DNA of 64,000 bases from Candidatus Poribacteria bacterium (lineage in GTDB: Bacteria; Poribacteria; WGA-4E; GCA-2687025). Below, piece by piece: positions 7,313 to 55,199 of the stretch (the first letter of the stretch is position 1; the number at the start of each line of letters is the position of its first letter). The notes beneath the pieces were generated by a model that was not told the origin of the DNA, made no database searches, and worked only from the letters and a program-made list of their open reading frames with translations. The translations under genes were made by a program, and so were the position numbers. The stretch lies in contig OY762492.1 in the NCBI GenBank assembly GCA_963665845.2, positions 352,001-416,000 of the forward strand. Reading direction: 5' to 3'.

Positions 7313-7313
7313 C

Positions 7314-17218: not shown

Positions 17219-17223
17219 GTGAA

Positions 17224-38200: not shown

Positions 38201-38559
38201 ACGACCCGAAGCCGATCTACGCAAACGAGATACCGACCGAACGGCGCGAACGGCTGTTGAACGGCGCCGCGCGCGGGATTGTGAACCGCCGGCTTGCAGG
38301 CGCGGCGCTGGTCGTCCTGGAAACGTGCAAGCCGCTCAACTTTGTCGGCTCTCAATTCATGCTGGCGCTGCATCCGCTTGTCTCCATTTTTTTTAAATAC
38401 AGAGCGGACGACTACCGCAACATGGCGCTGATACTGGAATCGGACGCGCATTTTGAGGAGCTGATCGACCGCATTGAAACGCTGGAGCAAAGGCGCCGAA
38501 ACGGAAAGCCTCAAGAAAAACCGCAAGAGAAAAACGAAGAGGAAACGCATGGCGGATAA
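38197..38559 (+). CDS. Hypothetical protein
   Basis: ATGA coupling to upstream gene, overlaps downstream start; LETCKPLNFVGSQ core. Confidence 0.7.
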   Translation: MNDPKPIYANEIPTERRERLLNGAARGIVNRRLAGAALVVLETCKPLNFVGSQFMLALHPLVSIFFKYRADDYRNMALILESDAHFEELIDRIETLEQRRRNGKPQEKPQEKNEEETHGG

Positions 38560-40321
38560 CAGGCTCCGCTCCATTTTAGCGACCGACTGCGGCAGCACGA
38601 CGACGAAGGCGATTCTGATCGAATATGTCGAGGAGGGGGAGGGCGGATCGTATCGGCTCATTGCGCGCGGCGAGTCGCCCACAACGGTGGAGGCGCCGGT
38701 TGAGGATGTGACGGTCGGCGCGCTGAACGCCGTCACCGAAACGCAGGAGATCGCCGGGCGTACCTTGACGCGCGATGGACGCATTTTGAAATCGAACGGC
38801 GGCGGCGAGGGCGTTGACATCTACATCTCAACAAGCAGCGCGGGGGGCGGCTTGCAGATGATGGTCGCCGGCGTCGTCCGCGCCATGACCGCTGAAAGCG
38901 CCGAACGGGCGGCGCTCGGCGCCGGGGCGATCGTCATGGACGTTGTCGCCTCAAACGACCGCCGACTTCCCCATGAAAAAATCGAACAGATTCGCCGTTT
39001 GAGACCTGACATGATCCTGCTTTCCGGCGGCGTTGACGGAGGGACGATCTCCCATGTCGCCGAACTGGCGGAGCTGATTGCGGCGGCGAACCCGACCGCG
39101 CGCCTCGGCGCCGGGTACGATCTCCCGATCATCTACGCCGGGAACGTGGACGCGCGGGAACTGGTGACGGAGCGGCTCGGAAAGCGCATGTCCCTGGAGA
39201 TTGTGGACAATCTGCGCCCCGTCCTTGAAAAAGAGAATCTGCTGCCCGCCCGTAAAATGATACAGTCCAAATTCTTAGAGCATGTCATGGCGCATGCCCC
39301 CGGCTACAAAAACTTGATGGAATGGACAGACGCGGACATCATGCCGACGCCGGGCGCGGTCGGTTATATGATGCAGACCATCGCGGAGGGGCGCGGCGTC
39401 AACATTTTAGGCGTCGACATCGGCGGCGCCACAACCGATGTGTTCTCCGTCTTCGACGGCGTCTTCAACCGAACCGTCAGCGCGAACCTCGGCATGAGCT
39501 ACAGCGTCTCCAACGTTCTGGCTGAAGCGGGCATTGACGACACGCTGCGCTGGATACCTTTTGAGGTGGACAAACGCGCGCTCCATAACAGCGTCAAAAA
39601 CAAAATGGTGCGCCCGACCACGATCCCGCAAACCGTCGACGACCTTGTCATAGAGCAGGCGATCGCCCGCGAAGCGCTGCGCCTCGCGTTTGAACAGCAT
39701 AAACTGTTGGCGACAGGGCTGCGCGGCGTTCAGCAGCAGCGCACCATCAGCGAAGCGTTCACGCAGACGGCGGCAGGCGAAACGCTGGTCGATATGGAAG
39801 CGCTGGATCTGATTGTCGGGAGCGGGGGCGTGTTGTCGCATGCGCCGAGACGGATTCAGTCCGCGGCGATGATGATCGATGCGTTTCAGCCGGTCGGAAT
39901 GACGCAGCTCGCCGTCGATTCGATCTTCATGATGCCGCAGCTGGGCGTACTTGCGCAGGTGGACGCGAAGGCGGCGATGGATGTGTTTGAACGCGACTGC
40001 CTCATCCCGCTCGGAACGGTCATCGCGCCGAACGGGGCGGCGGACGCGCGCTCCTCGCTCCATGTCAGCGGAACCTTCCCAGACGGCTCCCCCCTGGACG
40101 AGACGCTTCCGTCCTGCGCGATACGGCAATGGACGCTGGAGGCGGGCAGCAGCATGGAGGTGCGGTGCGTACCCAGCGGGTCGTTCAGCTTCGGCGAAGG
40201 GCGCGAGCGCGCCGCAACCTTTGAGGCGACGGGCGGCGCGGCGGGGCTGATTGTGGACGCGCGCGGACGACCCATGCGAGGCGTCCCCGGACAACTGAAC
40301 CTTTACCCGAACCGAAAGTGA
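38549..40321 (+). CDS. GlmL/MutL-type (glutamate mutase accessory) ASKHA ATPase
   Basis: TDCGSTTTKA, SSAGGGL, LLSGGVDGG, MPTPGAV, VDIGGATTDVFS, RTVSANLGMSYS. Confidence 0.82.
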   Translation: MADNRLRSILATDCGSTTTKAILIEYVEEGEGGSYRLIARGESPTTVEAPVEDVTVGALNAVTETQEIAGRTLTRDGRILKSNGGGEGVDIYISTSSAGGGLQMMVAGVVRAMTAESAERAALGAGAIVMDVVASNDRRLPHEKIEQIRRLRPDMILLSGGVDGGTISHVAELAELIAAANPTARLGAGYDLPIIYAGNVDARELVTERLGKRMSLEIVDNLRPVLEKENLLPARKMIQSKFLEHVMAHAPGYKNLMEWTDADIMPTPGAVGYMMQTIAEGRGVNILGVDIGGATTDVFSVFDGVFNRTVSANLGMSYSVSNVLAEAGIDDTLRWIPFEVDKRALHNSVKNKMVRPTTIPQTVDDLVIEQAIAREALRLAFEQHKLLATGLRGVQQQRTISEAFTQTAAGETLVDMEALDLIVGSGGVLSHAPRRIQSAAMMIDAFQPVGMTQLAVDSIFMMPQLGVLAQVDAKAAMDVFERDCLIPLGTVIAPNGAADARSSLHVSGTFPDGSPLDETLPSCAIRQWTLEAGSSMEVRCVPSGSFSFGEGRERAATFEATGGAAGLIVDARGRPMRGVPGQLNLYPNRK

Positions 40322-40328
40322 GCTGACG

Positions 40329-41441
40329 ATGGCGCAAGCATACACGCCGGGTTTGACGGTCGCGCGGCGGGCGGCGGTGCGGAAGATGCGCAAGCTGCCG
40401 TTGCCGGGCGAAACGCTTGTGAAGGTCGGCGACGCGGTCGAGGCGGACTCGGTTGTCGCGCGGACAAATCTTCCAGGGGACGCGCATCCGTTGAACCTGT
40501 CGCGCGCGTTGAACGTTCCCGAATCGGATGTGGAGCGGCATCTGCTGGTGAAGCTGGGCGAGCCGTTTCAAAAAGGCGCGCTCATCGCCGAGACGAAGGG
40601 CTTTTTTGGTCTGTTTAAATCGCGCTGCGCCGCCCCCGTGGACGGCTCGCTTGAAACCGTCTCGACCGTGACGGGGCAGGCGATCCTGCGCGAACCGCCC
40701 AAGCCGCTGGAGGCGCGCGCCTATGTGAAAGGCGTTGTCGTCGAGACGCTGGAGGACGAAGGCGCCGTCGTTGAAATGGAGGGCGCGTTCATTCAGGGCA
40801 TTCTGGGCGTCGGCGGAGAAACGCATGGCGAGCTGGTCCTGGCAGCTGAACGCGGCGAGGAACTGACCGCCGAGAAGGTGTCGCCGATGCATGAAGGAAA
40901 AGTACTCATCGTCGGCGGAAGCGTCCGCGCGGACGCTCTAGAAAAGGCGGCTGAAATCGGGGCGGCGGGGATCGCGGCGGGATGCATCGACGCGGCGGAC
41001 CTGCGCGATTGCCTCGGATATGAGCTGGGAGTCGCTGTCACAGGCGCGGAAGAGATTGGGCTGACCGCCATCGTCACGGAAGGGTTTGGACGCATCGACA
41101 TGGCGGAAAAAACCTTTCAGCTGTTGACCTCGCTGGAAGGGCGCCCGGCGTCCATGAACGGCGCGACGCAGATACGCGCCGGCGTGACCCGACCGGAGAT
41201 CCTGGTTCCGATGGAGGGGGAGGGCGAAGCGTATTCGGCGTCCGCGCTGACGCTTGAGACGGGGGCGGCGGCGCGCGTCATTCGGGAGCCGCGCTTCGGC
41301 GAAACGGGCGAAATTGCGGAGCTGCCGGTTGAGCTGCAGGAGATCGAGACGGGCGCGCGGGTGCGCGTCGCGGTGGTGCGTCTGCAGAACGGCGACGAAA
41401 TCGCGCTCCCAAGAGCGAACATTGAACTGATTGGCGGCTAG
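40329..41441 (+). CDS. Hypothetical protein, probable GlmL partner
   Basis: Adjacent to glmL-like gene; VKVGDAV and APVDG barrel-sandwich-like motifs, TEGFG. Confidence 0.7.
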   Translation: MAQAYTPGLTVARRAAVRKMRKLPLPGETLVKVGDAVEADSVVARTNLPGDAHPLNLSRALNVPESDVERHLLVKLGEPFQKGALIAETKGFFGLFKSRCAAPVDGSLETVSTVTGQAILREPPKPLEARAYVKGVVVETLEDEGAVVEMEGAFIQGILGVGGETHGELVLAAERGEELTAEKVSPMHEGKVLIVGGSVRADALEKAAEIGAAGIAAGCIDAADLRDCLGYELGVAVTGAEEIGLTAIVTEGFGRIDMAEKTFQLLTSLEGRPASMNGATQIRAGVTRPEILVPMEGEGEAYSASALTLETGAAARVIREPRFGETGEIAELPVELQEIETGARVRVAVVRLQNGDEIALPRANIELIGG

Positions 41442-42594: not shown

Positions 42595-43758
42595 TCATTT
42601 GAGAGCGTCAGGGAGGTTGGGGTTGAGGCTTTCTTCTTCCTTGCCTGTCGGAATCGGAAGCGGGTCCGACGCATCTGGATCGTAGAACGCTTTTTCGCTT
42701 TCCACCTCTGCAGCCTGATTGCCTTCGCCAAAATTTGTGTAGGCAAAAACATGGTACTCCTTGTCTGGTTTCAATATCTGCGGTGTGTCCATCGGCAATG
42801 GCTCGCTCTCCCAGAATGATGGCGCTGCGGAGAACAACTTATCTTTCGAAAAGTTCAATAAATCAACAGGATCTCCATTTTCATACCACCCGGCTTTGCG
42901 CCGCAATGTCAAATCATTCGGACGCCCGTCGTAATAGTATTCGATGATGTGACCGCTCGTGAAAACGTACTCGTGGTTAGGATGTTTGGAAAAACTCTCA
43001 ACCCGCGAGACCATGCGGCGCCACAGAAAACCGTAGCCGGAGAACACGGTGACAGTGATTTCGTCGTCGTCGCTGGGGAGGGGACCATTCGTGTTGATCC
43101 CGTAAACGACCGCTTCGACCTTGACAACTTTGCCGTTTCGATTGCCGCTCGAAAATGTCCATGTCAGCTCGCTTCTTAAAGCGGGGCCTGAGTCCGTTCT
43201 CTGGTATTTTCCGTCAACATACCAGTTGACGTACCAGAAGCCGACATCTGTCTCGATGGATAAGTCGAGAGAGTTGCTCCTAACGATGCGGGAGTCAGAC
43301 GTTTTCGAAAGAATGCTGATGGATTTCGACGACGACCAAGCGTTAAAGGTGATCGAATTGGACGCTGTGTTGCCGTGTAAGTCGGTCACTTTTGCCGTGA
43401 TCTTGACAGGTTTTCCTCGAGGTCCGCCGAATCCGTCGTAGGCGCGCGTAAAAGTGCTTGACAATTCGAGACCGTGCTGTATTTTAGACGGGTTTTCATC
43501 ATCGTTAATGAACCATTCGACTTTCACATAAAACCCGCGCGCCCTGACCGTTGTTGTGTGCATATAGCTTTCAATGACCTCTTCCTCAGACACCGTCATT
43601 GTTAAGGGCCCAAGAGCGGCGCTCGGTTGCGCGCAGACGAAGAAAACGCCCGACGCCGCAACGAGGAAGATCAGAGCGGCTTCAGTCAGCCGACTGACGC
43701 GAGAAGGGGGTCCAGCGGACACATCATGACGGTCGGTTCGTCCGAGAAGCGCGAACAT
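42595..43758 (-). CDS. Secreted beta-rich (Ig-like) hypothetical protein; start uncertain
   Basis: Hydrophobic signal then two similar modules (VEWFIND / VNWYVDG); lower GC than flanks. Confidence 0.6.
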   Translation of the reverse strand: MFALLGRTDRHDVSAGPPSRVSRLTEAALIFLVAASGVFFVCAQPSAALGPLTMTVSEEEVIESYMHTTTVRARGFYVKVEWFINDDENPSKIQHGLELSSTFTRAYDGFGGPRGKPVKITAKVTDLHGNTASNSITFNAWSSSKSISILSKTSDSRIVRSNSLDLSIETDVGFWYVNWYVDGKYQRTDSGPALRSELTWTFSSGNRNGKVVKVEAVVYGINTNGPLPSDDDEITVTVFSGYGFLWRRMVSRVESFSKHPNHEYVFTSGHIIEYYYDGRPNDLTLRRKAGWYENGDPVDLLNFSKDKLFSAAPSFWESEPLPMDTPQILKPDKEYHVFAYTNFGEGNQAAEVESEKAFYDPDASDPLPIPTGKEEESLNPNLPDALK

Positions 43759-43973
43759 GAGTTTTTCAGGCGTTTCATTTGATCGTCGTACTTTTCGGCG
43801 TTTGACTTTGGATGCATACGGCTCATCCGTCTGTACATATCCTGCCATAAGTTGTTCTCCCGTGTCAACGTCTTTCAATGCGAGCGAATCAAGCCGCGTT
43901 TGCCGTTCAGCCGTCGGCGCTGTATCATATATGCAGCGAATCGCAGCCCGAAGCTTCAAACGAAAGAGCGTTC

Positions 43974-45101
43974 TTGTTAGCAGCTTTTGACGCCCATTTG
44001 ACCCAGCGCGTCGTCTTCGGAGACGGCGCCGTCTCGCAGCTCGGCAGCCTCGTCAAAGAAATGGGGGCGCGGCGCATCCTGCTCGTCTCCGACATGGGCA
44101 TCGTCCAGGCGGGCATACTCCACAGAGCGCAGGATTCCTTAGACAAATCGAAGATCGAACATGCCGACTTCAAAGAAACGGAGCCGAATCCCGAAGCCTG
44201 TCAAGTGGAGCGCGCCGCGCAATTCGCGCGCGACGCCGGCCCCTTCGACCTGATTGCCGCCGTCGGCGGCGGAAGCGTTATGGACTGCGCAAAGGGGGTC
44301 AACTTTCTGCTCGCCAACGGCGGAACGATGCGCGATTACTGGGGCTTCGGCAAAGCGAATAAGCCGATGCTCCCCTCCATCGGCGTCCCGACCACCGCCG
44401 GAACCGGCAGCGAGGCGCAGTCGTACGCGATCATCTCGGACGACAAAACGAAACGCAAGATGGCATGCGGCGACCCGAAGGCGCGCTTCCATGCCGTCAT
44501 CCTGGACCCGTCCCTCGCCGCGAGCGCGCCTAGGGGCGTCTCTGCCGCCGCGGGAATCGACGCCGTCTCCCATGCGCTTGAAAGCTATGTTTGCTTGCGC
44601 CGCAATCCGCTGTCGCAGATGTATTCGCGCGAGGCATGGCGGCTCATGGAAAAAAACCTTGAAACGGCGCTTGCCGACCCGTCCAACATACAGGCGCGCG
44701 CGGGAACGCTTCTCGGCGCGTATTACGCCGGCATGGGCATCGAACTCTCCATGCTCGGCGCCGCGCATGCGATGGCGAATCCGCTCACGGCGCGGTATCG
44801 GATCGCGCACGGGGAGGCCGTCGCTTTGACACTTCCGCCCGTCATCCGCCACAACCGGCAAACCGCCGGCGATCTTTACGACGAGCTGGCGCAGACGGCG
44901 GGCATCGCTTGCCCCGTTGAGGAGCGTTTTTTGGAATTGCGAGCCGCCGCGCAGCTGACGGAACGGCTGCGCGACCGAGGCATACCTTCAGCCGACCTGC
45001 CTGACCTTGCCGCCCGCGCGGCAGAAGAGTGGACAGCCAACTTCAACCCGCATCCCGTCGATTCGACCTCGCTGCGCTGTCTCTATGAACAAGCGTATTA
45101 A
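43974..45101 (+). CDS. Iron-containing alcohol dehydrogenase
   Basis: GGGSVMDCAK, PTTAGTGSE, DAVSHALE, HAMANPL, HGEA; TTG start inferred. Confidence 0.9.
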   Translation: MLAAFDAHLTQRVVFGDGAVSQLGSLVKEMGARRILLVSDMGIVQAGILHRAQDSLDKSKIEHADFKETEPNPEACQVERAAQFARDAGPFDLIAAVGGGSVMDCAKGVNFLLANGGTMRDYWGFGKANKPMLPSIGVPTTAGTGSEAQSYAIISDDKTKRKMACGDPKARFHAVILDPSLAASAPRGVSAAAGIDAVSHALESYVCLRRNPLSQMYSREAWRLMEKNLETALADPSNIQARAGTLLGAYYAGMGIELSMLGAAHAMANPLTARYRIAHGEAVALTLPPVIRHNRQTAGDLYDELAQTAGIACPVEERFLELRAAAQLTERLRDRGIPSADLPDLAARAAEEWTANFNPHPVDSTSLRCLYEQAY

Positions 45102-46233
45102 ACAGCAGGCAAACGCGCTTCTGGCGCTTCTCTTCTTGACGCTGTCGGCGTCCGCGGAGGAGAGCAAAGACAGCTGGCTCAACTTTCGAGGCGGACCGCA
45201 ATTAAAAGGAGCCGCCCAAAGCGAACTGCCCGATCAACTGGAGCGGATCTGGACATTCATGACGAAAGGAAGCGTTGAATCGACCGCGGCGATCCATGAC
45301 GGAACGGTCTATGTCGGCTCCGGCGATGGCAAACTGTACGCGCTTCATCTTTCGGACGGTACCGAAAAATGGCATTTTGACGCGGGCAGCCCCGTCAACT
45401 CCTCCCCGACCTACCATGAAGGCGCGCTCTATTTCGGCAGCGAGGAGGGCCTCTTTTTTGCCGTCCATGCCGAGAGCGGCGGAGAGATATGGCGCGTTGA
45501 AACGGCGGGCGAGATCTACTCCGGCGCGCTTGTCGTGAAAGAGCGCGTCCTCTTTGGATCGTACGACGGATACCTGCGCGGCGTCTCCATTGAAAACGGC
45601 GACGAAATTTGGAAAGTAGAAACGGACAATTACATCCATGCCAGCCCCGCGTCTTCTGATCTGGGCGCGGTCGTCGCGGGCTGCGACGGCGTCCTGCGCG
45701 CCGTGGATCCGATCACCGGCGCGGAAACACTGAACCTGAACCTGGAAGATTACATCGGCTCCAGCGCCGCAGTGGACGGAAAGACCGCCTTTCTCGCCTC
45801 TTACGGCGCGCGCGCTCTCGCCGTCGATCTGGAGAAAGCGGACATTCTTTGGGAATACCAACATCCGACGCGCCAGTTTCCGTTCCTCGCCTCCGGCGCC
45901 TTGACCGATAAACTATATATCGTCGGCGGACGCGACAAGACGATGCATGCCATCGACCGCAAGACTGGACAGCCTGTATGGACGAAACCTGTCGGCTCCA
46001 AGATCGACTCCTCGCCTGTGACGGCGGGCGGGCGCGTCTTTTTTGGAACGGCGGGCGGCGAATTAACGGCGCTGCGTTTGACAGACGGCGAGATGGTGTG
46101 GCAATATGAAATTGGCGCCGACATCGCCGCTTCGCCGAGCGTCGCGTCCAATAAACTGGTCATCGGCGCCGACGACGGCGTCGTCTACTGCTTTGGAAGC
46201 TTAAAAAATGAAGGAAACTCTGAATATCGTTAA
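45085..46233 (+). CDS. Secreted PQQ-type beta-propeller protein
   Basis: Signal peptide, W..FRG; repeated YAL...G...W blades with SSP. Confidence 0.85.
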   Translation: MNKRIKQQANALLALLFLTLSASAEESKDSWLNFRGGPQLKGAAQSELPDQLERIWTFMTKGSVESTAAIHDGTVYVGSGDGKLYALHLSDGTEKWHFDAGSPVNSSPTYHEGALYFGSEEGLFFAVHAESGGEIWRVETAGEIYSGALVVKERVLFGSYDGYLRGVSIENGDEIWKVETDNYIHASPASSDLGAVVAGCDGVLRAVDPITGAETLNLNLEDYIGSSAAVDGKTAFLASYGARALAVDLEKADILWEYQHPTRQFPFLASGALTDKLYIVGGRDKTMHAIDRKTGQPVWTKPVGSKIDSSPVTAGGRVFFGTAGGELTALRLTDGEMVWQYEIGADIAASPSVASNKLVIGADDGVVYCFGSLKNEGNSEYR

Positions 46234-47569
46234 GCCGGAACCGGCGACCACGCGGCTCGATTCCAAAACAACGGACATCGGCAGCGTCTTCGTCTCGAAC
46301 TATCCGCCGTATTCGTTTTGGAACGCGGACGCCGTTTCAGAAGCGCATGCCGTTCTGAACGCGCCGCCGCCTGAGGACGCGCCCGCGCCGCTTCTCGGCC
46401 TCTACATGCATATCCCGTTCTGCCGTAAGCGGTGCAAGTTCTGCTACTTCCGCGTTTATACCGACAAAAACGCGCGGGATATTGAAACCTACACGAACGC
46501 GCTGGCGGCTGAAGTCGAGACCTACGCCGCGCTTCCGCGCATCGAGAACCGACCGCTTCATTTTGTGTATTTCGGCGGAGGGACGCCTTCTTACATCAGC
46601 TCGCGCCATTTGAAGCAGCTGACGGATCGGGTCAAGGCGGTCATGCCGTGGGACAAAGCGGAGGAGGTCGCTTTTGAATGCGAGCCAGGGACGCTGACGC
46701 AATCGAAGGTCGCCGCGATCAAGGATATTGGCGTTACGAGGTTGAGCCTCGGCGTTGAAAACCTGAACGACGACATCCTGCGCGAAAACGGACGCGCGCA
46801 CATCTCTAAAGAGGTGTACCGCGTCATGCCCTGGGTTCTGGACGCGCAGTTTGACCAGCTGAACGTCGACCTCATCGCGGGGATGATTGGGGAAACCTGG
46901 GAGAACTGGCGCGATACGGTTCAAAAAACCATCGATCTGAACGCGGACAGCGTGACGGTTTATCAGCTGGAGCTGCCGCACAACACGGTCTATTCGCGCG
47001 ATCTCAAAACGGGCGAAATGGTGGAGACGGCGGTCGCCACATGGGACGAGAAGCGGGAATGGCACGCTCACGCTTTTGAGCAGTTTTGCGCCGCCGGGTA
47101 TGAGATTTCCAGCGCCTATACGGTCATCAAAAAAGAGAACGCGCATGGGTTCGTTTATCGGGACGCGGTCTGGACAGGGCAAGACCTGATGGGCGCGGGC
47201 GTCGCGTCTTTCTCGCATGTCGGCGGCGTTCATTTTCAGAATGCGCCGCACTGGGACGGGTATCTGGAGCCGGCGGCGGAAGGACGGCTGCCGATTCAGC
47301 GCGCCTTCAAGCCGACCGAGGAGGAGCGGGTCGCGCGGCAGATGATTCTTCAGCTGAAACTGGGACAGCTGGAGGCGCAGCCGTTCCGCGACCAGTTCGG
47401 CGTCGACATCATTGAACGCAACCGAGAGCCGCTAGAACGGCTGCGCGAGGAAGGCATGCTGGAATTCGACACGGAGCGAATCCAGCTGACGCATGCGGGC
47501 TTCCTGCGCGTCGACCAGCTGTTGCCGGAGTTTTACGCCGAAAAATACCGCAACTCGCGCTACACCTGA
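46208..47569 (+). CDS. HemN-like radical SAM enzyme (possible class C methyltransferase)
   Basis: YMHIPFCRKRCKFC, YFGGGTPS, RLSLGV, NVDLI. Confidence 0.88.
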   Translation: MKETLNIVKPEPATTRLDSKTTDIGSVFVSNYPPYSFWNADAVSEAHAVLNAPPPEDAPAPLLGLYMHIPFCRKRCKFCYFRVYTDKNARDIETYTNALAAEVETYAALPRIENRPLHFVYFGGGTPSYISSRHLKQLTDRVKAVMPWDKAEEVAFECEPGTLTQSKVAAIKDIGVTRLSLGVENLNDDILRENGRAHISKEVYRVMPWVLDAQFDQLNVDLIAGMIGETWENWRDTVQKTIDLNADSVTVYQLELPHNTVYSRDLKTGEMVETAVATWDEKREWHAHAFEQFCAAGYEISSAYTVIKKENAHGFVYRDAVWTGQDLMGAGVASFSHVGGVHFQNAPHWDGYLEPAAEGRLPIQRAFKPTEEERVARQMILQLKLGQLEAQPFRDQFGVDIIERNREPLERLREEGMLEFDTERIQLTHAGFLRVDQLLPEFYAEKYRNSRYT

Positions 47570-48813
47570 TCAACCGCCGAAGCGGAGCGGAGAAAGGCGT
47601 TCAAGCCTGTGAGCGCCGTTTCCACTTCGTCCGTATAAACATATCCGCTCAATATGTCGGCGACGCCCATTCGGCATTCGGGGCGCTCCGTGAGGAAACG
47701 GGAGAAGCTGAACTCTTTCATGTAAAAGGCGTAGATCAGCTGGCGAAACGCTTCCATCCCTTCGTCCAGTTTCGCGCCGAACGCGCCGAGGCGTTCGGCG
47801 GAGAGATCGCCCGTTTGAATCGCGTCAACCGCCGCGTCCGCCGCCCATTCGCCCGACTGCAGCGCCAGATAGACGCCGGACGAGTAGATCGGGTCAAGAA
47901 AGCCGTATGCGTCTCCGATCAACACCCAGCCTGGACCGGCAATCTGACTGGAGCGGTAGGAAAAATCTTTCGTCGTCTTCATCGGAAAGGCTTGTCGGGA
48001 ACCGTTCAGCCGTTCTTGCAGCGGCTTGCACTTTTCTAATTCGCGCTGAAAAATCTGCTCGGCGCTCAAGGAGCGGTCGCTGAAAAGATCGTCGATGGAA
48101 CCGACGGCGCCGACGCTCACATGATCGCGCGGCAGCGGAATATACCAGAACCAGGAATCTTTGCCGCGCGCGCTGAGAATCAACGTCGCTCCTTCGTCAA
48201 TACCTTCATCCCGATGCGCGCCGATAAAATGCGTGTACACCGCCGCCTTGCGCAGCCGCGGATCTGGTTCGCAGATCTTCATACGGCGCGGCGTCAAGGC
48301 GCTTTGCCCCGTCGCGTCCATGAGAACCTTTGAACCTATCTCCGTTTCCTCTCCGTTCGGGAGCTTCGCGCGGACGCCGACAGCGCGTTCGCCGTCAAAA
48401 AGGGCGTTCAAAACACGCGCCCCTTGTACGACGCATGCGCCTTTCTCGACAGCGTTTTGAAGCAGCATTTCGTCAAAATCGGCGCGAAGAACCTGCCACG
48501 TTACGGACTGGTCGCCGGGTCGGCTTTCAAAAAAATAGAACGGGCGGGACGCTTTCCCGGAACTGGAGAAAAACTGAACGCTGTATTTACGGGGAAACTC
48601 CGCCGCGTTCAGCTTCTCCACCATGCCGAGGCGTTTTAATGTGGCGTAGGTGCCTGGTATGAGCGATTCGCCCACTTTGAAGGTTGGCTGTTGAGAGCGC
48701 TCCAGCAGCAGCGTTTGAACGCCCGCTTCAGCCGCCAGCGCCGCCGCGGTGGAACCTGCCGGCCCGCCGCCGGCGACAATCAGATCGTACCTGTTTTCGA
48801 TGGGCGTGTTCAT
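47560..48813 (-). CDS. Flavin-dependent halogenase-like oxidoreductase
   Basis: GGGPAG, KVGES, FPRKYS (catalytic-Lys position), WFWYIP (WxWxIP), GDAYGFLDPIYSSGV. Confidence 0.82.
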   Translation of the reverse strand: MNTPIENRYDLIVAGGGPAGSTAAALAAEAGVQTLLLERSQQPTFKVGESLIPGTYATLKRLGMVEKLNAAEFPRKYSVQFFSSSGKASRPFYFFESRPGDQSVTWQVLRADFDEMLLQNAVEKGACVVQGARVLNALFDGERAVGVRAKLPNGEETEIGSKVLMDATGQSALTPRRMKICEPDPRLRKAAVYTHFIGAHRDEGIDEGATLILSARGKDSWFWYIPLPRDHVSVGAVGSIDDLFSDRSLSAEQIFQRELEKCKPLQERLNGSRQAFPMKTTKDFSYRSSQIAGPGWVLIGDAYGFLDPIYSSGVYLALQSGEWAADAAVDAIQTGDLSAERLGAFGAKLDEGMEAFRQLIYAFYMKEFSFSRFLTERPECRMGVADILSGYVYTDEVETALTGLNAFLRSASAVDQV

Positions 48814-50054
48814 GTTGTCTCCGCGCGTTTATCCGTTACGCGGCGCGCCTTCAACTCAAAGCGGGGCAGTTCTCCCGCCGCCGCCCGCTCCACTGCCGCG
48901 CTCAATCCCAAGGCGGAGCGGAACGCATGACCTATTTTTTCAAGCGTCTCTCCGCCCCCTTCTTTCAGCTCAACGCGCAGCGTTACAACGTCCAACGCGC
49001 CTGGGCGGCTGACCTCCACCGCATACTCTGCAACCTGCGGAAAACGGCGGACGACCGCCTCGATAGAGCTTGGAAAGACGACGACGCCGCGTATCAAAAG
49101 CGCGTCGTCCACCCGCCCGACGACGCCGCCGTCCAGCCTACGGGAGCCGTCTTCCTTCAACCAGCGGACATGATCGCCTGTGCGGTAACGGATGATCGGC
49201 ATGCCGATGCGCCCAAGGTTCGTTACGATCAGCTCGCCTTCGTTTGCCTGCTCCCCTGTTTCTGGATCGATGATCTCAAAGATGAACTCCGCCTCGTTCA
49301 GACGCATTCCCGCTTCCGCCTCGCTGGTGTAGCCCCATGCGCCGACCTCCGTCGCGCCGGCGTGGTCAAAACATTTGGCGCCCCATGCCGTTTCAATCGC
49401 CTTTTTCGCGGCAGGGATGGAGGCGCCCGGCTCTCCCGCGTGTATCGTTGCGCGGACGGCGGACGAGGCGATGTCCATGCCGCCCGCTTCGGCGACTTCA
49501 GCCAAACGCAGCGCATAGGTGGGCGTCGAGATTAAAACGGTCGCTTCGTTGGAGAGAATCGCGTCGATGCGCTGTTCGGAGGACATCGCGCCGCCGGGCA
49601 GCGCCAGCGCGCCGATGCGCCGCGCGCCCTCATACGCGCTCCAAAACCCGATGAACGGCCCAAACGAAAAGGCGAAAAAGACGCGGTCATGGCGCGTCAC
49701 GCCGGCGGCGCGGTACACCTCCGCCCAGCAGTCGCCCCACCAGTTCCAGCTCTCTTCGGTGTCAAGCCAGCGCAGCGGCCGCCCCGTTGTGCCGGAGGTT
49801 TTATGAATGCGGATATACGCATCGGGCGCGTAAGTCAGATTCGTTCCGTAGGGCGGATGTTGAATCTGGTCGTCTGACAGCTCCGTTTTTTCGGTGAAGG
49901 GAAGTTGTCGGTACGCCTCCATCGAGTCGACGCGCGCGTCCGCGCCAAGCTTGCGCTTGTAAAAGGCGTTCGACGGCAAAATGCGCTCAAGAGCGGCGTT
50001 CAGCCGTTTCAGTTGACGCCGTTCAATGTCATCCCTGCCGCGCAGTTCAGTCAT
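48810..50054 (-). CDS. Phenylacetate-CoA ligase (PaaK)-family aryl-CoA ligase
   Basis: KTSGTTGRP, AGEPG, HAGATE, RYRTGD, GRVDD. Confidence 0.88.
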   Translation of the reverse strand: MTELRGRDDIERRQLKRLNAALERILPSNAFYKRKLGADARVDSMEAYRQLPFTEKTELSDDQIQHPPYGTNLTYAPDAYIRIHKTSGTTGRPLRWLDTEESWNWWGDCWAEVYRAAGVTRHDRVFFAFSFGPFIGFWSAYEGARRIGALALPGGAMSSEQRIDAILSNEATVLISTPTYALRLAEVAEAGGMDIASSAVRATIHAGEPGASIPAAKKAIETAWGAKCFDHAGATEVGAWGYTSEAEAGMRLNEAEFIFEIIDPETGEQANEGELIVTNLGRIGMPIIRYRTGDHVRWLKEDGSRRLDGGVVGRVDDALLIRGVVVFPSSIEAVVRRFPQVAEYAVEVSRPGALDVVTLRVELKEGGGETLEKIGHAFRSALGLSAAVERAAAGELPRFELKARRVTDKRAETT

Positions 50055-50611
50055 GGAGATTCAGCGAGATTCAGCGGAAACCGTTCAACAATCACCATGA
50101 GCGGCCGTCCTCGGTTGATCATGCGGTAGGAGCGGCAGATATGCGGATCATGGGGGTTCTCCATGCCGGGGGAAGGGGGCGCGTCCGCCGGCTCCATGCC
50201 ATGCCAGAGCAGCTCGCGGTAGGTCTCGGCGCGGTTCTGCCGAAGCAGCCGTCCAAGCGATTCCTCCGCGCCCTCCACGCCCGTCAACAAAGCCCCCTCA
50301 AGCCTCTCCGGCGCGATGAGCGACGTTCCATAGGCGTACACCGCGCCGGTCTTTGCGCCTTTCAATAACACATCCCGCGCCATGACGCTCGCCCCGCTCT
50401 CCGCCTCAAGCCAGCGATGCGGCTGCGTCAAGACGCGCCGTTTTTGGCTTAAGCATGTTACGTCAACCCGCTCCGCCGTGTACGCCTCGATGAACTGCGT
50501 CACCGTTCCGTCGATGACAAGCAGCGCGCGCTGAAACGGCGTCAAGGCGTCCGCGTCCAGATCGCAGAGACCGTCAGGGCGCGATTCTTGGGCGATAAAC
50601 AGCGCGTTCAT
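50051..50611 (-). CDS. Chorismate pyruvate-lyase-like protein (UbiC/Rv2949c-type)
   Basis: LLVIDGTVTQFIEAY, RDVLL, SLGRLL, RSY....GRPLMVIVERFP. Confidence 0.78.
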   Translation of the reverse strand: MNALFIAQESRPDGLCDLDADALTPFQRALLVIDGTVTQFIEAYTAERVDVTCLSQKRRVLTQPHRWLEAESGASVMARDVLLKGAKTGAVYAYGTSLIAPERLEGALLTGVEGAEESLGRLLRQNRAETYRELLWHGMEPADAPPSPGMENPHDPHICRSYRMINRGRPLMVIVERFPLNLAESP

Positions 50612-50657
50612 GCGGCGCGCGGGAAACGTATGCGACGTTGACTTAGCATCTCAATTG

Positions 50658-50825
50658 CTGACTTTACGTCTTTAGTTGGAACAAGCCGGCGGGCGAACCC
50701 GGACGGTTTCGGCGGCGCCCCTAGATTCCCGCTTACGCGGGAATGACGGTCTGGTTGGCTGCGCTTTTTTCCCATGAGTAAGGGCTTTATTCGTCCAAAT
50801 GTCCCAACTTTACACATGAGGTTGG
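50658..50825 (+). mobile_element. Full-length family-A MITE-like element with REP (50724-50747)
   Basis: Flanked by TCAATTG direct repeats (50651-50657, 50826-50832); homologous to 2132-2312. Confidence 0.75.
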
Positions 50826-51773
50826 TCAATTGCTCTTGACCCGAACCTCGTCTTTCGTCAAGGTTCGCCCCAGCGCCGCGTCCCAGTTCATGTTCGCTTC
50901 CGGCGGCGTCGTCTGAACGCAGTCAGGATAAAGCCGCCCGCAGACATACATTTCAGGCGTCCCCCACTCTTCCGTTCCAGGTACGATCCACCGCTTGCCC
51001 TCGATATGCTGAATCGTCGATTTCATGTAATGGACGACATAGGCGCGGCGGTATCGGTCGGAGCGGTTTTGATGGCTGCCGTGAAAGAGCGCGTTGTTGA
51101 AAAAGATGAGCGACCCTTTTGGTACCTCGACAGGAATCGCCTGCTCCGCCGTCTCATCCGTCATGGTGAGCCGTTTTTGCAGGAAATACCCCTCGCTTTC
51201 CACTTGCCCATGATCAACGACGCCGAGATGGTGGCTCCCTGGGACGACCCAAAGGCAGCCGTTCTGCTCATCCGCATCGTCCAGAGCCATCCATGTGCCG
51301 ATCGTGGAGAGGTCGATGTCCTCGCCGACGCTGCTTATATAGGTGTTGCGAAAATACCAGGAGTCCTGATGCCACGCGACAGGGCGCCCCGTTCCCGGCG
51401 GTTTTAAAAAGTACAGGTCGTTTGGACAAAACAGATCATGCCCGACAATATCCTGCACAGGCGCCAGCCGCCGTTCGTCGCGGATATGCGCGCGCACAAA
51501 CGCGCTGAAGGTGTGTATGCGGTACATGTTGTCCAGCGGAAGCGTACCCGCCGTCTCCTTTGTCTGATCGGGGCGGCGCAGTATTGTTCGTTTCTGCTGA
51601 TCGGTCAGCGCGTCGGACGCTTCAACCAGCTCCGCAATCTCATCAGCCCGCGCGCGCAGGGCGTCCATTTCGTCGGCGCCGAACATTTTGGGGCGGATGA
51701 AGTAACCATCCTCCTCATACTGCCGCCGCTCCTTGTCAGTCAGCCGCTGCGCGCTCTTGCCATTGCTTGGCAT
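50826..51773 (-). CDS. Phytanoyl-CoA dioxygenase (PhyH) family Fe(II)/2OG oxygenase
   Basis: FLKPPG, WHQD, WMALDD...NGCL.VVPGSH, HGS..NRS; GGAGG RBS. Confidence 0.9.
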   Translation of the reverse strand: MPSNGKSAQRLTDKERRQYEEDGYFIRPKMFGADEMDALRARADEIAELVEASDALTDQQKRTILRRPDQTKETAGTLPLDNMYRIHTFSAFVRAHIRDERRLAPVQDIVGHDLFCPNDLYFLKPPGTGRPVAWHQDSWYFRNTYISSVGEDIDLSTIGTWMALDDADEQNGCLWVVPGSHHLGVVDHGQVESEGYFLQKRLTMTDETAEQAIPVEVPKGSLIFFNNALFHGSHQNRSDRYRRAYVVHYMKSTIQHIEGKRWIVPGTEEWGTPEMYVCGRLYPDCVQTTPPEANMNWDAALGRTLTKDEVRVKSN

Positions 51774-51774
51774 C

Positions 51775-53931
51775 TTATCCTCCATAACCCCATTCAACCG
51801 AGAGGAGAGTCTCCCGCGGGTTGCCGGGGATGAGCGACAGCCCGCCAAACCCCCACATCTCGTATTCTGTGTCGGTCAGGTTTTTGCCGGTCAAACGGAC
51901 GCGGAAACCCTCATACTCATAAAACGCCGAGGCGTCCAGCAGCGAGTATGCGTCCATCTCGTAGGCGTTGTCCGGCGCGATGAACTGCGCGCCGACATAT
52001 CTCCAGCCCGCCGAGACGCCTAAGCCCTCCATCAACATCTTTTCTGTCCATAGGCTCAACAGATGCGTCGGGGCGAATTGCGGAACGTTGCCCGCATAAT
52101 CGATCTCGGTCGGAACGAATGAGCCGTCCGGCATCGGTATCGGGAGCGTCCGCTTCAGCTCCGTATATTCAGCGTCGGTGAAGGCGTAAGCGGCGCTTGC
52201 CGTCCACCCCGGCTTCAGTTCAGCGGCGATGTCGATCTCCGCCCCCTGCGAGAGCTGCGTCCCTGTTTGAGACAGGACGCCTGAATCGTCCGGCAGACTG
52301 ATGTCTTTCTCGATCCTGAACAGCGCGAGCGACATTTGCGCCTTGCCGTCCATGAGCAGATGTTTGGTTCCAACCTCCGCCTGCGTTGCCGTTTCCGCTT
52401 CCGGTTCCCCGGCGACGCGCGCCGAGGGCGGCGCAAAGCTTTGGCTGAAGCTGGCGTAGACCGAACCGCCTTCGCCCAACGAATAGACCGCGCCCGCCAA
52501 CGGGCTAAGCTGCGAGTAGCTGCGCTCCGTCTCCGTCTTTGGATCTTCATAGCTGATCGAGTCGAACCGCGCGCCGAGGAAGACCTGGATGTCCCTCGTC
52601 AGATACAGTCGATCCACAACATACGGCGCCAAGATAAGCGAGGATGCGTCCGCCCCTAGCGATTGATTCGGCTGCGGAATCGGATCCATCGGGAAGGTGA
52701 ATAAATCGTAGACGCCCATAGGCGAAATCGCCGAGACGTCAATAGTGAATTCGTCTGTCCATTGCGCCGTTTCCAGTCCAATCAGAAACTGATGCGGTAC
52801 CGGACCGGTCTTGACCGACAGCAGCGCTTCCAGCTGATTTCCGATGACCGTTTGCGCGTCGTCCAGCGCCGTTGTAATGCGGTAGGCGTCGATGAGGCCG
52901 GGGCCTCTCTCCATGCCGAAACCCGCAAAGAGCGTCCCCGACGAATCCCACTTAAAATCGGTGAAGTACAGCTTGTCCCGAATCGTGAGCTGGTCGTTTA
53001 TCTCCGTTTCAAGATTGACCTGGGCGCGCAGCGTCGTCTGTTCAGACAGATCGTCTTCCGATTGGTAGGAGGTCGTCCGCTCCACATCCGGCAAAACATT
53101 CGGCGACTGCGACGTTCCTTGACCCAGCATGATGTCCGGCAACAGCGGAATTCCCGCGTCCGATTTGCGTTCGACGATAGAGACTTCCAGCTCCGCCCCG
53201 ATCGTTGTCGACTCGTTCAGCTGGTACAGTAAGGACGGATTTGCGGCGACTGCATTGCTTTCCTTGTCGTCGCGGTAACGGTCGGACTGCTCCCACATCG
53301 TGTTCAAGCGTACGCTGACAGGACTCTGCGCTTCTTTTCCTCCCCATCCGAAATCCCCCGCCGCCCGCATCGCGTTGAATTGTCCATAGCCGAAGCGGAA
53401 ACGCGCGAACGTATCGCCGGTCGGCTTTTTTCGCGCTAGGTTGACCGTTCCGGACAGAGCGTTTCCGCCGTAGAGAAACGCGCCCGGTCCTTTCAACACC
53501 TCAACCCGTTCAATGTTGTAAAGATCGTAAAAGCCGACCTCCGGTTCGGGGGAGCCGTCTGTCATGACGAGACCGCTGCTAAGCGACTCAAAGCCGCGGA
53601 TGATGAACGTTTCAAACACGCCGAAGCCGCCCTGCGCCTGCGCGCCGCTCACATTCTTGAGCGCGTCGCCCAAGCCGACCGCCGACTGGCTTTCCAGAAG
53701 ACCGCTGGATACGACGCCGACGCTCAACGGCGTCTCCAAAAAAGAGAGCGGCGTTTTGACCGCGATGGAGGAAAGCCTTTCGTTCTCAACGACCACCTCT
53801 TCCAGCGCCACCTCTTCCATTTCGCCGGCTTCGGTTTCCGTCTCCCCGCCATGCGCGTCGCCGAGAGCGGCGGACGACCAGCCGAACGTCAGAAGCAGCG
53901 CGGCGGATATTGTTACCGCATATCGATACAT
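51775..53931 (-). CDS. TonB-dependent receptor
   Basis: Signal peptide, EEVVV TonB-box-like, IRGF, IERVEVLKGP.A.LYG, NLTD..Y, PGNPR. Confidence 0.92.
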   Translation of the reverse strand: MYRYAVTISAALLLTFGWSSAALGDAHGGETETEAGEMEEVALEEVVVENERLSSIAVKTPLSFLETPLSVGVVSSGLLESQSAVGLGDALKNVSGAQAQGGFGVFETFIIRGFESLSSGLVMTDGSPEPEVGFYDLYNIERVEVLKGPGAFLYGGNALSGTVNLARKKPTGDTFARFRFGYGQFNAMRAAGDFGWGGKEAQSPVSVRLNTMWEQSDRYRDDKESNAVAANPSLLYQLNESTTIGAELEVSIVERKSDAGIPLLPDIMLGQGTSQSPNVLPDVERTTSYQSEDDLSEQTTLRAQVNLETEINDQLTIRDKLYFTDFKWDSSGTLFAGFGMERGPGLIDAYRITTALDDAQTVIGNQLEALLSVKTGPVPHQFLIGLETAQWTDEFTIDVSAISPMGVYDLFTFPMDPIPQPNQSLGADASSLILAPYVVDRLYLTRDIQVFLGARFDSISYEDPKTETERSYSQLSPLAGAVYSLGEGGSVYASFSQSFAPPSARVAGEPEAETATQAEVGTKHLLMDGKAQMSLALFRIEKDISLPDDSGVLSQTGTQLSQGAEIDIAAELKPGWTASAAYAFTDAEYTELKRTLPIPMPDGSFVPTEIDYAGNVPQFAPTHLLSLWTEKMLMEGLGVSAGWRYVGAQFIAPDNAYEMDAYSLLDASAFYEYEGFRVRLTGKNLTDTEYEMWGFGGLSLIPGNPRETLLSVEWGYGG

Positions 53932-55130
53932 GCGATCTCCTCCAGGCTGCGGATAAACAGGAACCCGTTCGACAACGACGGGCTTGTCCAACCTTTATTT
54001 TTTGTTTCAAGCGCCATCGCATGGGCATGCTCGTTGTAAGCGTCCGGCGAGGCGTCCGCGACAGCGAGGTTGCCCTGTTCACCCAGAATGATCAGCTTGT
54101 CGCTTGCCAAGATGACCGTTCCGCGCCCAAATGTGCGCCCTTTAGCCCAGCTTTCATCGCCCGTGTCGGCGTTGATGCATTTCAACGTTCCGCCGTCGAA
54201 TCCGTAGATGTAGCCGTCTTTATAGACAGGCGACGCCATCTGGCTTTTCAGAACCTTGTTTGTCCAGACGCCGTTGGCGGCGTAGGAGCCGTTGTCCTTT
54301 GCGATCTCCACCACCGATGTCCCTTTGTCGTATCCGGACGCGAGCAGCAGGCGGCTGTCGTTCAGTTGAAGCGGGGTCGCTGAATTGACATCGTAGCTTG
54401 TTTTCCATGGATATGACCAGAGCGGTTCGCCCTCAAGCGAGACTCCGACGGCGCCGTCCGCCGGGAAGAAGACCAGCTGCTCCGTTCCCGCCAAGTTCAT
54501 GAGCGCCGGCGTGGCGTAGCCCGGCTTGCTGGAGTTGGATGTCCAAAGGGTGTCGCCCCTCTTTGCGTCTAGCGCCACGAAGCATTGATCGTCGGCGCCG
54601 CCCGCTTCGGCGTAGACGACGTTGTCGATGATGAGCGGGGAGCCAGAGTACCCCCAGTACGGTTTTCTGCCGGAATAGACCTTGACCAGGTCTTTCATCC
54701 ATGCAGGCGCGCCCGATTCGGCGTTCATTGCATGCAGCTTGCCATGCGCCGAGATCGTATAGACCATGCCGTTGACGACGGCTGGCGTGGCGCGCGGACC
54801 GTCGCCGCCCTGCCTGTCTTTGAAGATCTCGTCGGTGCGCTGCCGCCAGTGTTCGTCGCCTGTCTTGGCGTCTAAGCAGATCAGATATTCGCTTTCATCG
54901 TCGGAGGTCATCGTATAGGCGCGGTCGCCGACAACCGAGACGGCGGAAAATCCGTCGCCGAAATCCATGCGCCAGACCGTTTTCAGCTCGCCGCTGAGCC
55001 AGCCGATCGATTCGACGGTGGTTCCGTCGCGGTTCGGTCCGCGCCATTCAGGCCAATCGCCCGCAAGACTGTTCGCCGTTGCAGAAAGGAAGACAGCGGT
55101 CAAACCCGCCGCCAAGAGTATTCGTTTCAT
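53913..55130 (-). CDS. Secreted PQQ-type beta-propeller protein
   Basis: Signal peptide, DWPEWRGPNRDG, GPRATP, GYSGSP, repeated G...W blades. Confidence 0.87.
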   Translation of the reverse strand: MKRILLAAGLTAVFLSATANSLAGDWPEWRGPNRDGTTVESIGWLSGELKTVWRMDFGDGFSAVSVVGDRAYTMTSDDESEYLICLDAKTGDEHWRQRTDEIFKDRQGGDGPRATPAVVNGMVYTISAHGKLHAMNAESGAPAWMKDLVKVYSGRKPYWGYSGSPLIIDNVVYAEAGGADDQCFVALDAKRGDTLWTSNSSKPGYATPALMNLAGTEQLVFFPADGAVGVSLEGEPLWSYPWKTSYDVNSATPLQLNDSRLLLASGYDKGTSVVEIAKDNGSYAANGVWTNKVLKSQMASPVYKDGYIYGFDGGTLKCINADTGDESWAKGRTFGRGTVILASDKLIILGEQGNLAVADASPDAYNEHAHAMALETKNKGWTSPSLSNGFLFIRSLEEIACIDMR

Positions 55131-55170
55131 GGACAACTCCCACTCGCATAGTTACTTTCGCCGCCTTACT

Positions 55171-55199
55171 ATTTTAGCCGCTATAGAAGGAAAGCGCAA
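55171..55199 (-). promoter_or_regulatory. Sigma70-type promoter heading the minus-strand propeller/TBDR/halogenase operon
   Basis: TTGCGC-17 nt-TAAAAT on the minus strand. Confidence 0.55.

Follow-up and report, generated by a model that had tools for sequence, protein, structure and literature searches.

What do the nine closely packed genes at positions 43974 to 55130 of this stretch of a Candidatus Poribacteria genome (the window, 64,000 nucleotides in all) make, and why do a halogenase-like flavoprotein, an enzyme of the radical S-adenosylmethionine (SAM) class, a TonB-dependent receptor and two exported propellers stand together? A preliminary description proposed from the nine genes a route, free of polyketide synthases (PKS) and nonribosomal peptide synthetases (NRPS), to a halogenated, possibly methylated or reduced 4-hydroxybenzoyl-coenzyme A (CoA) derivative. 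We found that they are the middle and back part, about half, of a ~17-gene system to which eight of them belong. The system is built in three layers: an obligate EhpF/EhpG core, which lies outside the window, a radical SAM–halogenase pair, and optional genes for supply and uptake. Our tentative reading, to which we give somewhat less than an even chance, is that of a carrier-free system in which 4-hydroxybenzoate, derived from chorismate or imported, would become the glycoside of a halogenated, C1-modified hydroxybenzyl alcohol for delivery to the exported propellers. The system is common, with 33/41 Poribacteria, 47/201 Acidobacteriota and further loci in Latescibacterota and Gemmatimonadota.

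The nine open reading frames (ORFs) were confirmed, with the order, strands and families first given to them, by ORF reading and by Pfam and NCBIfam profiles over the window. They are listed here with the one repeat that lies among them.

43974..45101, plus strand: iron-containing alcohol dehydrogenase (Fe-ADH), 375 amino acids (aa), inferred TTG start (longest ORF from 43878); PF00465, E 2e-46, and PF25137.
45085..46233, plus strand: PQQ1, an exported propeller, modelled as eight-bladed and BamB-like; PF13570/PF13360.
46208..47569, plus strand: HemN-like (class C-type) radical SAM enzyme; PF04055 and PF06969; CxxxCxxC.
47560..48813, minus strand: PltA/CndH-type flavin-dependent halogenase-like enzyme; PF04820; K76, WFWYIP, YSSG.
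48810..50054, minus strand: PaaK-like aryl acid ligase, optional; TIGR02155 211 bits, cut-off 646.
50051..50611, minus strand: Rv2949c/DUF98-type chorismate-lyase-fold protein, optional; PF01947, E 3.5e-16; R79, R160, E176.
50725..50744, no strand: palindromic repeat ATTCCC-N8-GGGAAT in the PhyH–lyase gap, outside the system.
50826..51773, minus strand: PhyH-family Fe/2-oxoglutarate dioxygenase, a genus-level insertion; PF05721.
51775..53931, minus strand: TonB-dependent receptor, optional, position conserved; TIGR01783 above cut-off.
53913..55130, minus strand: PQQ2, a second exported PQQ_2-family propeller, usually immediately upstream of the receptor.

The ORFs are packed by overlaps of 4–26 nucleotides (nt), save for gaps of 1 nt and 214 nt flanking PhyH, the junction lengths depending on the start codons chosen. 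On the plus strand, Fe-ADH and PQQ1 share 17 nt and PQQ1 and the radical SAM gene 26 nt; the radical SAM and halogenase ends converge with a 10 nt overlap; and on the minus strand, the halogenase/ligase, ligase/lyase and receptor/PQQ2 junctions overlap by 4, 4 and 19 nt, respectively, with PhyH spaced 1 nt from the receptor. The sole loose joint is the 214-nt PhyH–lyase gap, which contains the genome-wide palindromic repeat and measures only ~40 nt in G001, a second genome of the same genus (82–93% protein identity) with the identical convergent arrangement. One contig of sequencing run X2, possibly the source sample, spans 43724-50747 with zero differences. In G000, the 90% complete genome that holds the window, the enzymes and the receptor are single-copy at the ortholog level, PhyH excepted (24 tblastn matches), and the nearest titled database record of the radical SAM protein is 93% identical. 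A scan for promoters and terminators did no better than on shuffled sequence, a plasmid search returned zero copies of the system at E ≤ 1e-40, and an RNA library held short contigs ~90–95% alike over several genes, which is not a demonstration of transcription. As to the repeat itself, 868 copies occur in G000 (866 on C1, where 0.19 are expected), with sites in the window at 50725, 55275 and eight other positions; we take it to resemble the Neisseria dRS3/REP type. Divergent from the Fe-ADH gene lies an orphan ORF of up to 454 aa (42595-43959, minus strand) with lower GC content and no Pfam or NCBIfam match, which has two paralogs in G000 and is not seen at this position in G001.

Does the arrangement of the nine genes carry meaning? 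The convergent layout, noted in the preliminary description, was ruled out as a meaningful trait, as most loci inspected are co-directional, and the convergence is best read from gene order as a local rearrangement of a co-directional operon. PhyH was ruled out as a pathway member, with its many copies and a system-adjacent ortholog solely in G001. The same-family genomes G004, G005, G006 and G007 keep receptor, lyase and ligase adjoining with no PhyH between receptor and lyase, which argues for a PhyH insertion as well as for the local rearrangement. PhyH is probably a passenger, and one account describes Poribacteria genomes as rich in phyH genes (PMC3909097). Co-conservation, expected of all nine genes, is supported for eight of them and not for PhyH.

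How much of the system lies beyond the window? At 100 loci we examined the flanks of the radical SAM ortholog, up to 10 kb in either direction (sets of 20 and 80, overlapping by at least two genomes; some contigs are short). The 80 titled loci comprise 41 from Poribacteria, 14 from Latescibacterota, 3 from Gemmatimonadota, 19 from Acidobacteriota and 3 others. Within this distance, strict orthologs were found of PQQ1 in 76 of the 80, Fe-ADH in 72, the halogenase in 54, the ligase in 49, EhpG-like in 34, EhpF-like in 25, a family 4 glycosyltransferase (GT4) in 25, PQQ2 in 24, the receptor in 22 (including 14/14 Latescibacterota) and the lyase in 4. The recurrence of PQQ1, Fe-ADH, halogenase and ligase near the radical SAM gene is clustering far beyond chance. 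The fullest loci begin with a large propeller, a second propeller, the EhpF-like protein, an EhpG-like protein of the aldehyde dehydrogenase (ALDH) fold, Fe-ADH, PQQ1, the radical SAM enzyme and PQQ2, and continue in the same direction with the receptor, ligase, halogenase, GT4, a membrane protein, a 4HBT-type thioesterase, a LolD-type ATPase and an FtsX-type permease; after the halogenase there frequently stands a DUF3311/sodium symporter or a TAXI-type binding protein.

In G000, the remaining genes (two propellers, EhpF/EhpG-like, thioesterase, GT4, symporter and LolD/FtsX exporter) lie at C1:1382750-1387564, 969704-971167, 3361808-3364556 and 3770752-3775638, so that the operon is split over five sites with all genes retained; a set so scattered yet complete suggests a retained housekeeping pathway. 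The position of the lyase connects it with the core. In G005 and G007 the genes run receptor, lyase, ligase, halogenase, propeller, DUF3311, symporter, then GT4, membrane protein and thioesterase; in G088, G115 and G176 they run radical SAM, lyase, halogenase, thioesterase; and in 6 other Poribacteria the coordinates place lyase and EhpF no more than 10 kb apart. The claimed absence of PKS and NRPS was borne out for the loci, whose gene maps show no PKS, NRPS or carrier protein; a carrier-protein motif scan returned 4 ORFs only, all unrelated or on the opposite strand.

Some loci carry additional genes. G005–G007 hold a second, diverged radical SAM–halogenase two-gene cassette (~40–45% identity; L162:10444-13271, L163:6293-9118, L164:7756-10550), followed in two cases by large secreted proteins, one typed DUF3160. 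Some Poribacteria carry insertions in the front half of the operon, namely a benzoylformate-decarboxylase-like thiamine pyrophosphate enzyme at 7 loci and a creatininase/MftE-like hydrolase at 9, as at L058:3407-5158 and 6958-7704.

Could the same inventory serve breakdown or detoxification rather than synthesis, the receptor and symporter importing aromatic alcohols or acids, the dehydrogenases oxidizing them and the ligase feeding CoA metabolism? Aromatic catabolism typically involves importers and a thioesterase, together with an alcohol dehydrogenase, an ALDH-fold protein and a CoA ligase, all of which are present. However, chorismate lyase and halogenase are biosynthetic in kind, as are the class C-type radical SAM enzyme, GT4 and the exporter. 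Ring-cleaving or ring-reducing enzymes do not recur in the neighborhoods inspected. The resemblance of the ALDH-fold protein to true ALDHs is very remote (E 1e-8), and in nearly every case it comes after EhpF. We regard this explanation as very improbable.

Are the genes inherited together? We searched whole genomes of 41 Poribacteria and 201 Acidobacteriota, which are related genomes and not independent trials. Radical SAM orthologs (at least 58% identity) occur in 33/41 Poribacteria, a 34th match at 27% identity being excluded as a different HemN-family gene, and they are near-universal within whole families (17/17 and 6/6). EhpF is present in the identical 33, and the halogenase (32/41) and lyase (26/41) only in radical SAM-positive genomes, the one gap of the halogenase being a 61%-complete genome. 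The receptor (6/41) is confined to G000's own family. None of these five genes was found in the remaining 8 Poribacteria, among them 4 genomes with a completeness of 90% or more. In Acidobacteriota, the radical SAM gene occurs in 47/201 genomes and the halogenase in 46/201, with 45 in common; the halogenase-only count is G068, a borderline match (39% identity) on which no conclusion rests. EhpF occurs in 55/201, including all 47 radical SAM-positive genomes, with two weak matches (33–37% identity) excluded. The lyase occurs in 21/201, 20 of them radical SAM-positive, and the ligase in 23/201, of which 19 share a genome with the radical SAM gene and 18 with the lyase. One Atlas cluster in which Verrucomicrobiota is the commonest phylum (9 members with a record) hints at a further host phylum.

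These counts give the three layers. The EhpF/EhpG-like pair is the most constant partner of the system, and the radical SAM–halogenase pair is almost never split; the distances of these two proteins correlate (rho 0.92, 26 pairs) because of shared ancestry. Lyase and ligase are linked as an optional pair and are nearly confined to system-positive genomes: the 47 radical SAM-positive Acidobacteriota divide into 17 with both, 25 with neither and 5 discordant. The link between chorismate lyase and ligase made in the preliminary description is real, with 18 Acidobacteriota sharing both, often adjacent. Lyase, ligase and receptor proved dispensable across genomes. A candidate view of the lyase as a local add-on (5/100 loci) was overturned by the whole-genome searches. 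The Pfam profile alone finds the lyase in 4 Acidobacteriota, against 21 in all, because the divergent form scores below the profile.

The pattern of retention bears on the possibility that the same chemistry yields a secreted defensive or signalling bromophenol-like compound, with propellers and transporters for export, resistance or sensing. Chorismate lyase and flavin brominase yield brominated aromatics in the bmp and the proposed baa pathways (bioRxiv 10.1101/723874), and a preprint on sponge clusters that combine a halogenase with an adenylation enzyme interprets them in this way (bioRxiv 10.64898/2026.08.03.742642). However, the family-wide retention, the survival of the five-site split and the 58–79% identity of EhpF across phyla suggest core physiology, and BaaB is Bmp5-like, another type of halogenase. 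A secreted product of this kind appears quite unlikely.

Is the flavoprotein a halogenase? Nine of its top ten Protein Data Bank (PDB) matches in a profile search (E 1e-96 to 3e-60) are named halogenases, and GGR follows at 1e-25; the class assignment is a ranking of profile scores. The best solved relatives are PDB 8zop, PltA, the CndH-type 3e1t, ChlB4 and CmlS. K76 and the residues W221, W223, I225 and P226 of the WxWxIP motif are kept in 82/82 sequences, and K76 aligns to K76 of the PltA chain, which we take to be native K73. These results support a putative halogenase, with predicted halide-dependent activity, over a GGR-type reductase, as first proposed. PltA/CndH-type halogenases usually act on tethered aromatics; the loci encode no carrier protein, which would leave CoA or an enzyme as the tether. 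PaaK-made aryl-CoA, earlier proposed as the substrate, is not a universal one, because 27/46 halogenase-positive Acidobacteriota lack a ligase ortholog; the PaaK-like ligase as universal loader of the halogenase was ruled out by this patchy distribution.

It is also conceivable that the flavoprotein hydroxylates, as QhpG does on a halogenase-like fold, and so yields a redox cofactor of the catechol or quinone type, which would be either free or part of a propeller protein. QhpG is described as structurally resembling halogenases (PMC7876137), the QhpG, LodB and GoxB models give 126, 108 and 93 bits, a PF01613 flavin reductase was not found in G000 or G001, and a larger PQQ-dehydrogenase-family gene stands immediately upstream of EhpF in G220, G229 and G238. 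However, these scores are far below the cut-offs and below that of CmlS (181 bits), QhpG is not among the 29 PDB matches at E ≤ 1e-12, and the halogenase lysine is invariant. Furthermore, the propellers carry Sec-type signal peptides, judged by eye, and cytoplasmic enzymes would therefore not meet the folded propellers. Hydroxylation is in our view improbable.

The radical SAM partner of the putative halogenase keeps C72, C76 and C79 in 122/122 family sequences. Y66, R178 and D221 are invariant in 26/26 and align to HemN Y56, NocN R153 and NocN D196 of the second-SAM site. It scores below every NCBIfam cut-off (HutW 188/400, HemN 178/325, HemW 174/205) and forms a family of its own, which counts at least 7,969 clusters at 90% identity. 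The gene is routinely annotated as coproporphyrinogen oxidase; G000 also holds a separate, more distant HemN-family match. Papers on HemN-like enzymes describe a shared SAM-methylene radical and reactions that include methylation, cross-linking and decarboxylation (PMC10114718, PMC12871812). For the present enzyme, methylation is the likely, predicted reaction.

Where would the aromatic acid come from? The lyase-like protein is a stand-alone domain (PF01947 59.9 bits, cut-off 22) whose model finds its best fold match in AF1396/DUF98 (TM score 0.75). R79, R160 and E176 are invariant in 14/14 and may correspond to the product-binding residues of UbiC, an Arg/Arg/Glu set that would tell a lyase from UTRA sensors; a function of the Rv2949c type is putative. 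UbiC itself (PF04345) was not found in 5 genomes, with a positive Escherichia coli control. The ligase, at 211 bits against a TIGR02155 cut-off of 646, is not a true PaaK; its pocket is invariant, with a segment of its own, FSFGPFIGFW, replacing the PaaK segment SYGYGLFTGGL. Residues 244-252 of the G000 ligase (48810-50054, minus strand) lack a Cys and a His that most orthologs have, a possible zinc site as in other PaaK structures.

The main difficulty is that lyase and ligase are missing from over half of the acidobacterial copies. This leaves two options: EhpF serves as the loader as well, or the core acid is a different one. The second option leads to a two-part product, in which the core (EhpF/EhpG, Fe-ADH, halogenase, radical SAM enzyme and GT4) would use another imported or housekeeping acid and the lyase and ligase would add a 4-hydroxybenzoyl ester or amide. 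The joint gain and loss of lyase and ligase against a constant core fits this option, as does the proposal that the PaaK-like BagE and YtkN form amides directly or via CoA thioesters (bioRxiv 10.64898/2026.08.03.742642). However, the lyase lies between the radical SAM gene and the halogenase, or directly before ligase and halogenase, and no other precursor enzyme recurs in the neighborhoods. We consider the two-part product unlikely.

The core outside the window points to the fate of the acid. The EhpF-like protein matches Pantoea EhpF (PDB 3l2k/3hgu) with E 1e-43, and the EhpG-like protein keeps Cys288 in 47/47; pairs of this type reduce aryl acids to aldehydes. The Fe-ADH is below all NCBIfam cut-offs. 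Because the EhpF/EhpG pair is the most constant partner, a reduced, glycosylated product is likelier than the CoA thioester with which the preliminary description ended. The G000 GT4 (L133:5809-7101) and its orthologs carry an N-terminal CxxC, invariant in 38/38 and unusual for GT4, that possibly binds metal. The eight Acidobacteriota L202-L209 have EhpF and EhpG, about half of them with GT4 and the LolD/FtsX exporter, and no radical SAM or halogenase orthologs; theirs is possibly a non-halogenated version of the pathway.

The gene set, families, catalytic motifs, folds and co-inheritance are established directly, and from them, with the closest solved relatives presumably acting on aromatic acids or tethered aromatics, we infer the reaction steps. 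The lyase would make 4-hydroxybenzoate, or a symporter or TRAP carrier would import it. Its activation as a thioester would fall to the PaaK-like ligase or, in genomes without PaaK, to the always-present EhpF-like enzyme. The flavoprotein may then halogenate the ring next to the hydroxyl and the HemN-like enzyme add a SAM-derived carbon, after which the 4HBT-type thioesterase would release or proofread. EhpF/EhpG would reduce the acid to the aldehyde and Fe-ADH the aldehyde to the alcohol, GT4 would attach a sugar, and the LolD/FtsX transporter would export the product. The propellers would bind the product or make use of it, and in some lineages the TonB receptor may take up product or precursor from neighbors. 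The order of the steps from halogenation to export and the role of the propellers and receptor are the weakest parts of the model.

Several observations weigh against this hydroxybenzoate pathway. Among the 47 radical SAM-positive Acidobacteriota, a lyase went undetected in 27 and a ligase ortholog is missing from 28, and four of the five tested hold no PaaK-family gene of any kind. The lyase is missing in 6/6 genomes of Poribacteria family f2, five of which were rechecked with a wider profile. Its fold is common to UTRA sensor domains, which rank level with UbiC after the best match. Importers also occur beside the lyase and therefore do not simply replace it. Eight Acidobacteriota hold EhpF without radical SAM or halogenase orthologs (5 rechecked). 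The PF01613 flavin reductase that G000 (90% complete) and G001 appear to lack was found in 3/5 genomes tested. Propeller counts did not track the system in five Poribacteria, with 5 and 14 matches in those that have it and 1, 7 and 13 in those that do not. In every count, kin are non-independent. Should hydroxybenzoate halogenation nevertheless prove a housekeeping function, it would bear on the origin of natural organohalogens in soil and sponges and would assign a role to a large number of PQQ-like propellers that now have none.

Could the propellers be the destination of a new cofactor? The call of PQQ-type propellers stands at the level of family, whereas a quinoprotein dehydrogenase is not what PQQ1 resembles. 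Its model (pLDDT 95.7) is a regular eight-blade propeller of 357 residues, for which designed propellers and BamB rank first and methanol dehydrogenase appears from rank 47, and it lacks the traits of PQQ dehydrogenases (a 550–600 residue propeller with cofactor-enclosing insertions); as modelled, PQQ1 is a BamB-like propeller. Its invariant GSYD, GCD (Cys200) and G-x-D and near-invariant YVH and RDK include a polar set (GSYD, YVH, GCD, GRDK) at equivalent loop positions of blades 3-6, which in the model suggests a pocket on one face, as judged by the register of the repeats. Many acidic and His residues are likewise invariant in the second propeller of the full operon. PF13360 gives 5 matches at 4 sites in G000, 3 of them within the system. 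First-look candidates of the TIGR04528 search, a crude measure, have a median of 59 in 31 EhpF-positive and 5 in 32 EhpF-negative Acidobacteriota, counts that cover 63 of the 201 rows, are not copy numbers and are confounded by kinship; the five Poribacteria counted above do not follow this pattern. A search for pqqC gave 0/5 genomes, with no control genome positive either.

A role as cofactor source for the acido-empty-quinoproteins (TIGR04528) was rejected, as only 2 of the 11 Acidobacteriota (of 201) over the cut-off are radical SAM-positive and 3 are EhpF-positive. That the product is an undescribed halogenated aromatic cofactor or ligand, exported, shared through the TonB receptor and loaded on periplasmic BamB-like propellers seems doubtful. 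If true, these propellers would be a new enzyme class, the system would hold the first carrier-free PltA-type halogenase and class C radical SAM enzyme acting on CoA- or enzyme-tethered hydroxybenzoate, and common soil Acidobacteriota and marine sponge symbionts would be a routine source of organohalogens.

Elsewhere in the window, six tandem paralogous ORFs (15266-26396, plus strand; ~610–650 aa, 40–91% mutual identity) begin with what look like signal peptides and match nothing in Pfam at E ≤ 1e-6, with more copies near C1:704833 and C1:3554832-3560750. A DNA methylase fused to an HNH endonuclease domain lies in a lower-GC stretch (32580-34013, plus strand), and a GlmL/MutL-family gene (PF13941) is followed by a 370-aa ORF without a family match (38474-41441, plus strand).

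How does the system compare with known ones? The EhpF/EhpG pair for D-alanylgriseoluteic acid in Pantoea and the GriC/GriD pair for grixazone share with this system an EhpF-type adenylating enzyme that precedes a divergent ALDH-fold protein, in which a Cys is invariant; here, however, no phenazine or aminohydroxybenzoate genes recur, and the partners are the halogenase, radical SAM enzyme, GT4, exporter and propellers. PltA, CndH, ChlB4 and Bmp2-type halogenases are the closest solved sequences and have the lysine and WxWxIP in common, but they use carrier-tethered aromatics, whereas the present loci hold no acyl or peptidyl carrier. The PQQ system and TIGR04528 follow the same logic of a small-molecule pathway with exported propellers and a TonB receptor, whereas PQQ1 is modelled as compact and BamB-like. 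MenK, NosN/NocN, ChuW/HutW and HemN share the HemN fold, the CxxxCxxC and the second-SAM residues (PMC10114718, PMC12871812), whereas the present enzyme, below the NCBIfam cut-offs, forms a separate family.

The bmp (Bmp6/Bmp5) and proposed baaA/baaB (planctomycete strain 10988) pathways likewise place a chorismate lyase-like gene beside a flavin halogenase with no megasynthase, and BaaB, ~44% similar to Bmp5, acts on the free acid in the authors' model (bioRxiv 10.1101/723874). The enzyme here is of the PltA/CndH type, set apart from BaaB by that description only, the lyase is of the Rv2949c/DUF98 type, and the present system adds activation, reduction, the radical SAM enzyme, GT4 and propellers. 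Halo_AMP clusters of sponge microbiomes likewise combine a halogenase with a stand-alone adenylation enzyme and frequent PQQ-like domains, share radical SAM enzymes, TonB receptors, glycosyltransferases and thioesterases, and occur in Poribacteria, Latescibacterota and Acidobacteriota (bioRxiv 10.64898/2026.08.03.742642); some of them, not matched gene by gene, are probably this system. Halo_AMP is a mining rule rather than a pathway, its text describes neither the EhpF/EhpG core nor the lyase/ligase pair and gives no product, and its focus cluster CC A has P450s, which the present system lacks. A search of the open-licence literature returned no description of this pathway beyond these uncharacterized clusters. 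New here are the layered pattern of presence and absence, the coupling of lyase and ligase, the exclusion of PhyH and the negative TIGR04528 test. By analogy, the system may work like a bmp/baa-type lyase and halogenase route joined to an EhpF/EhpG-type reductase.

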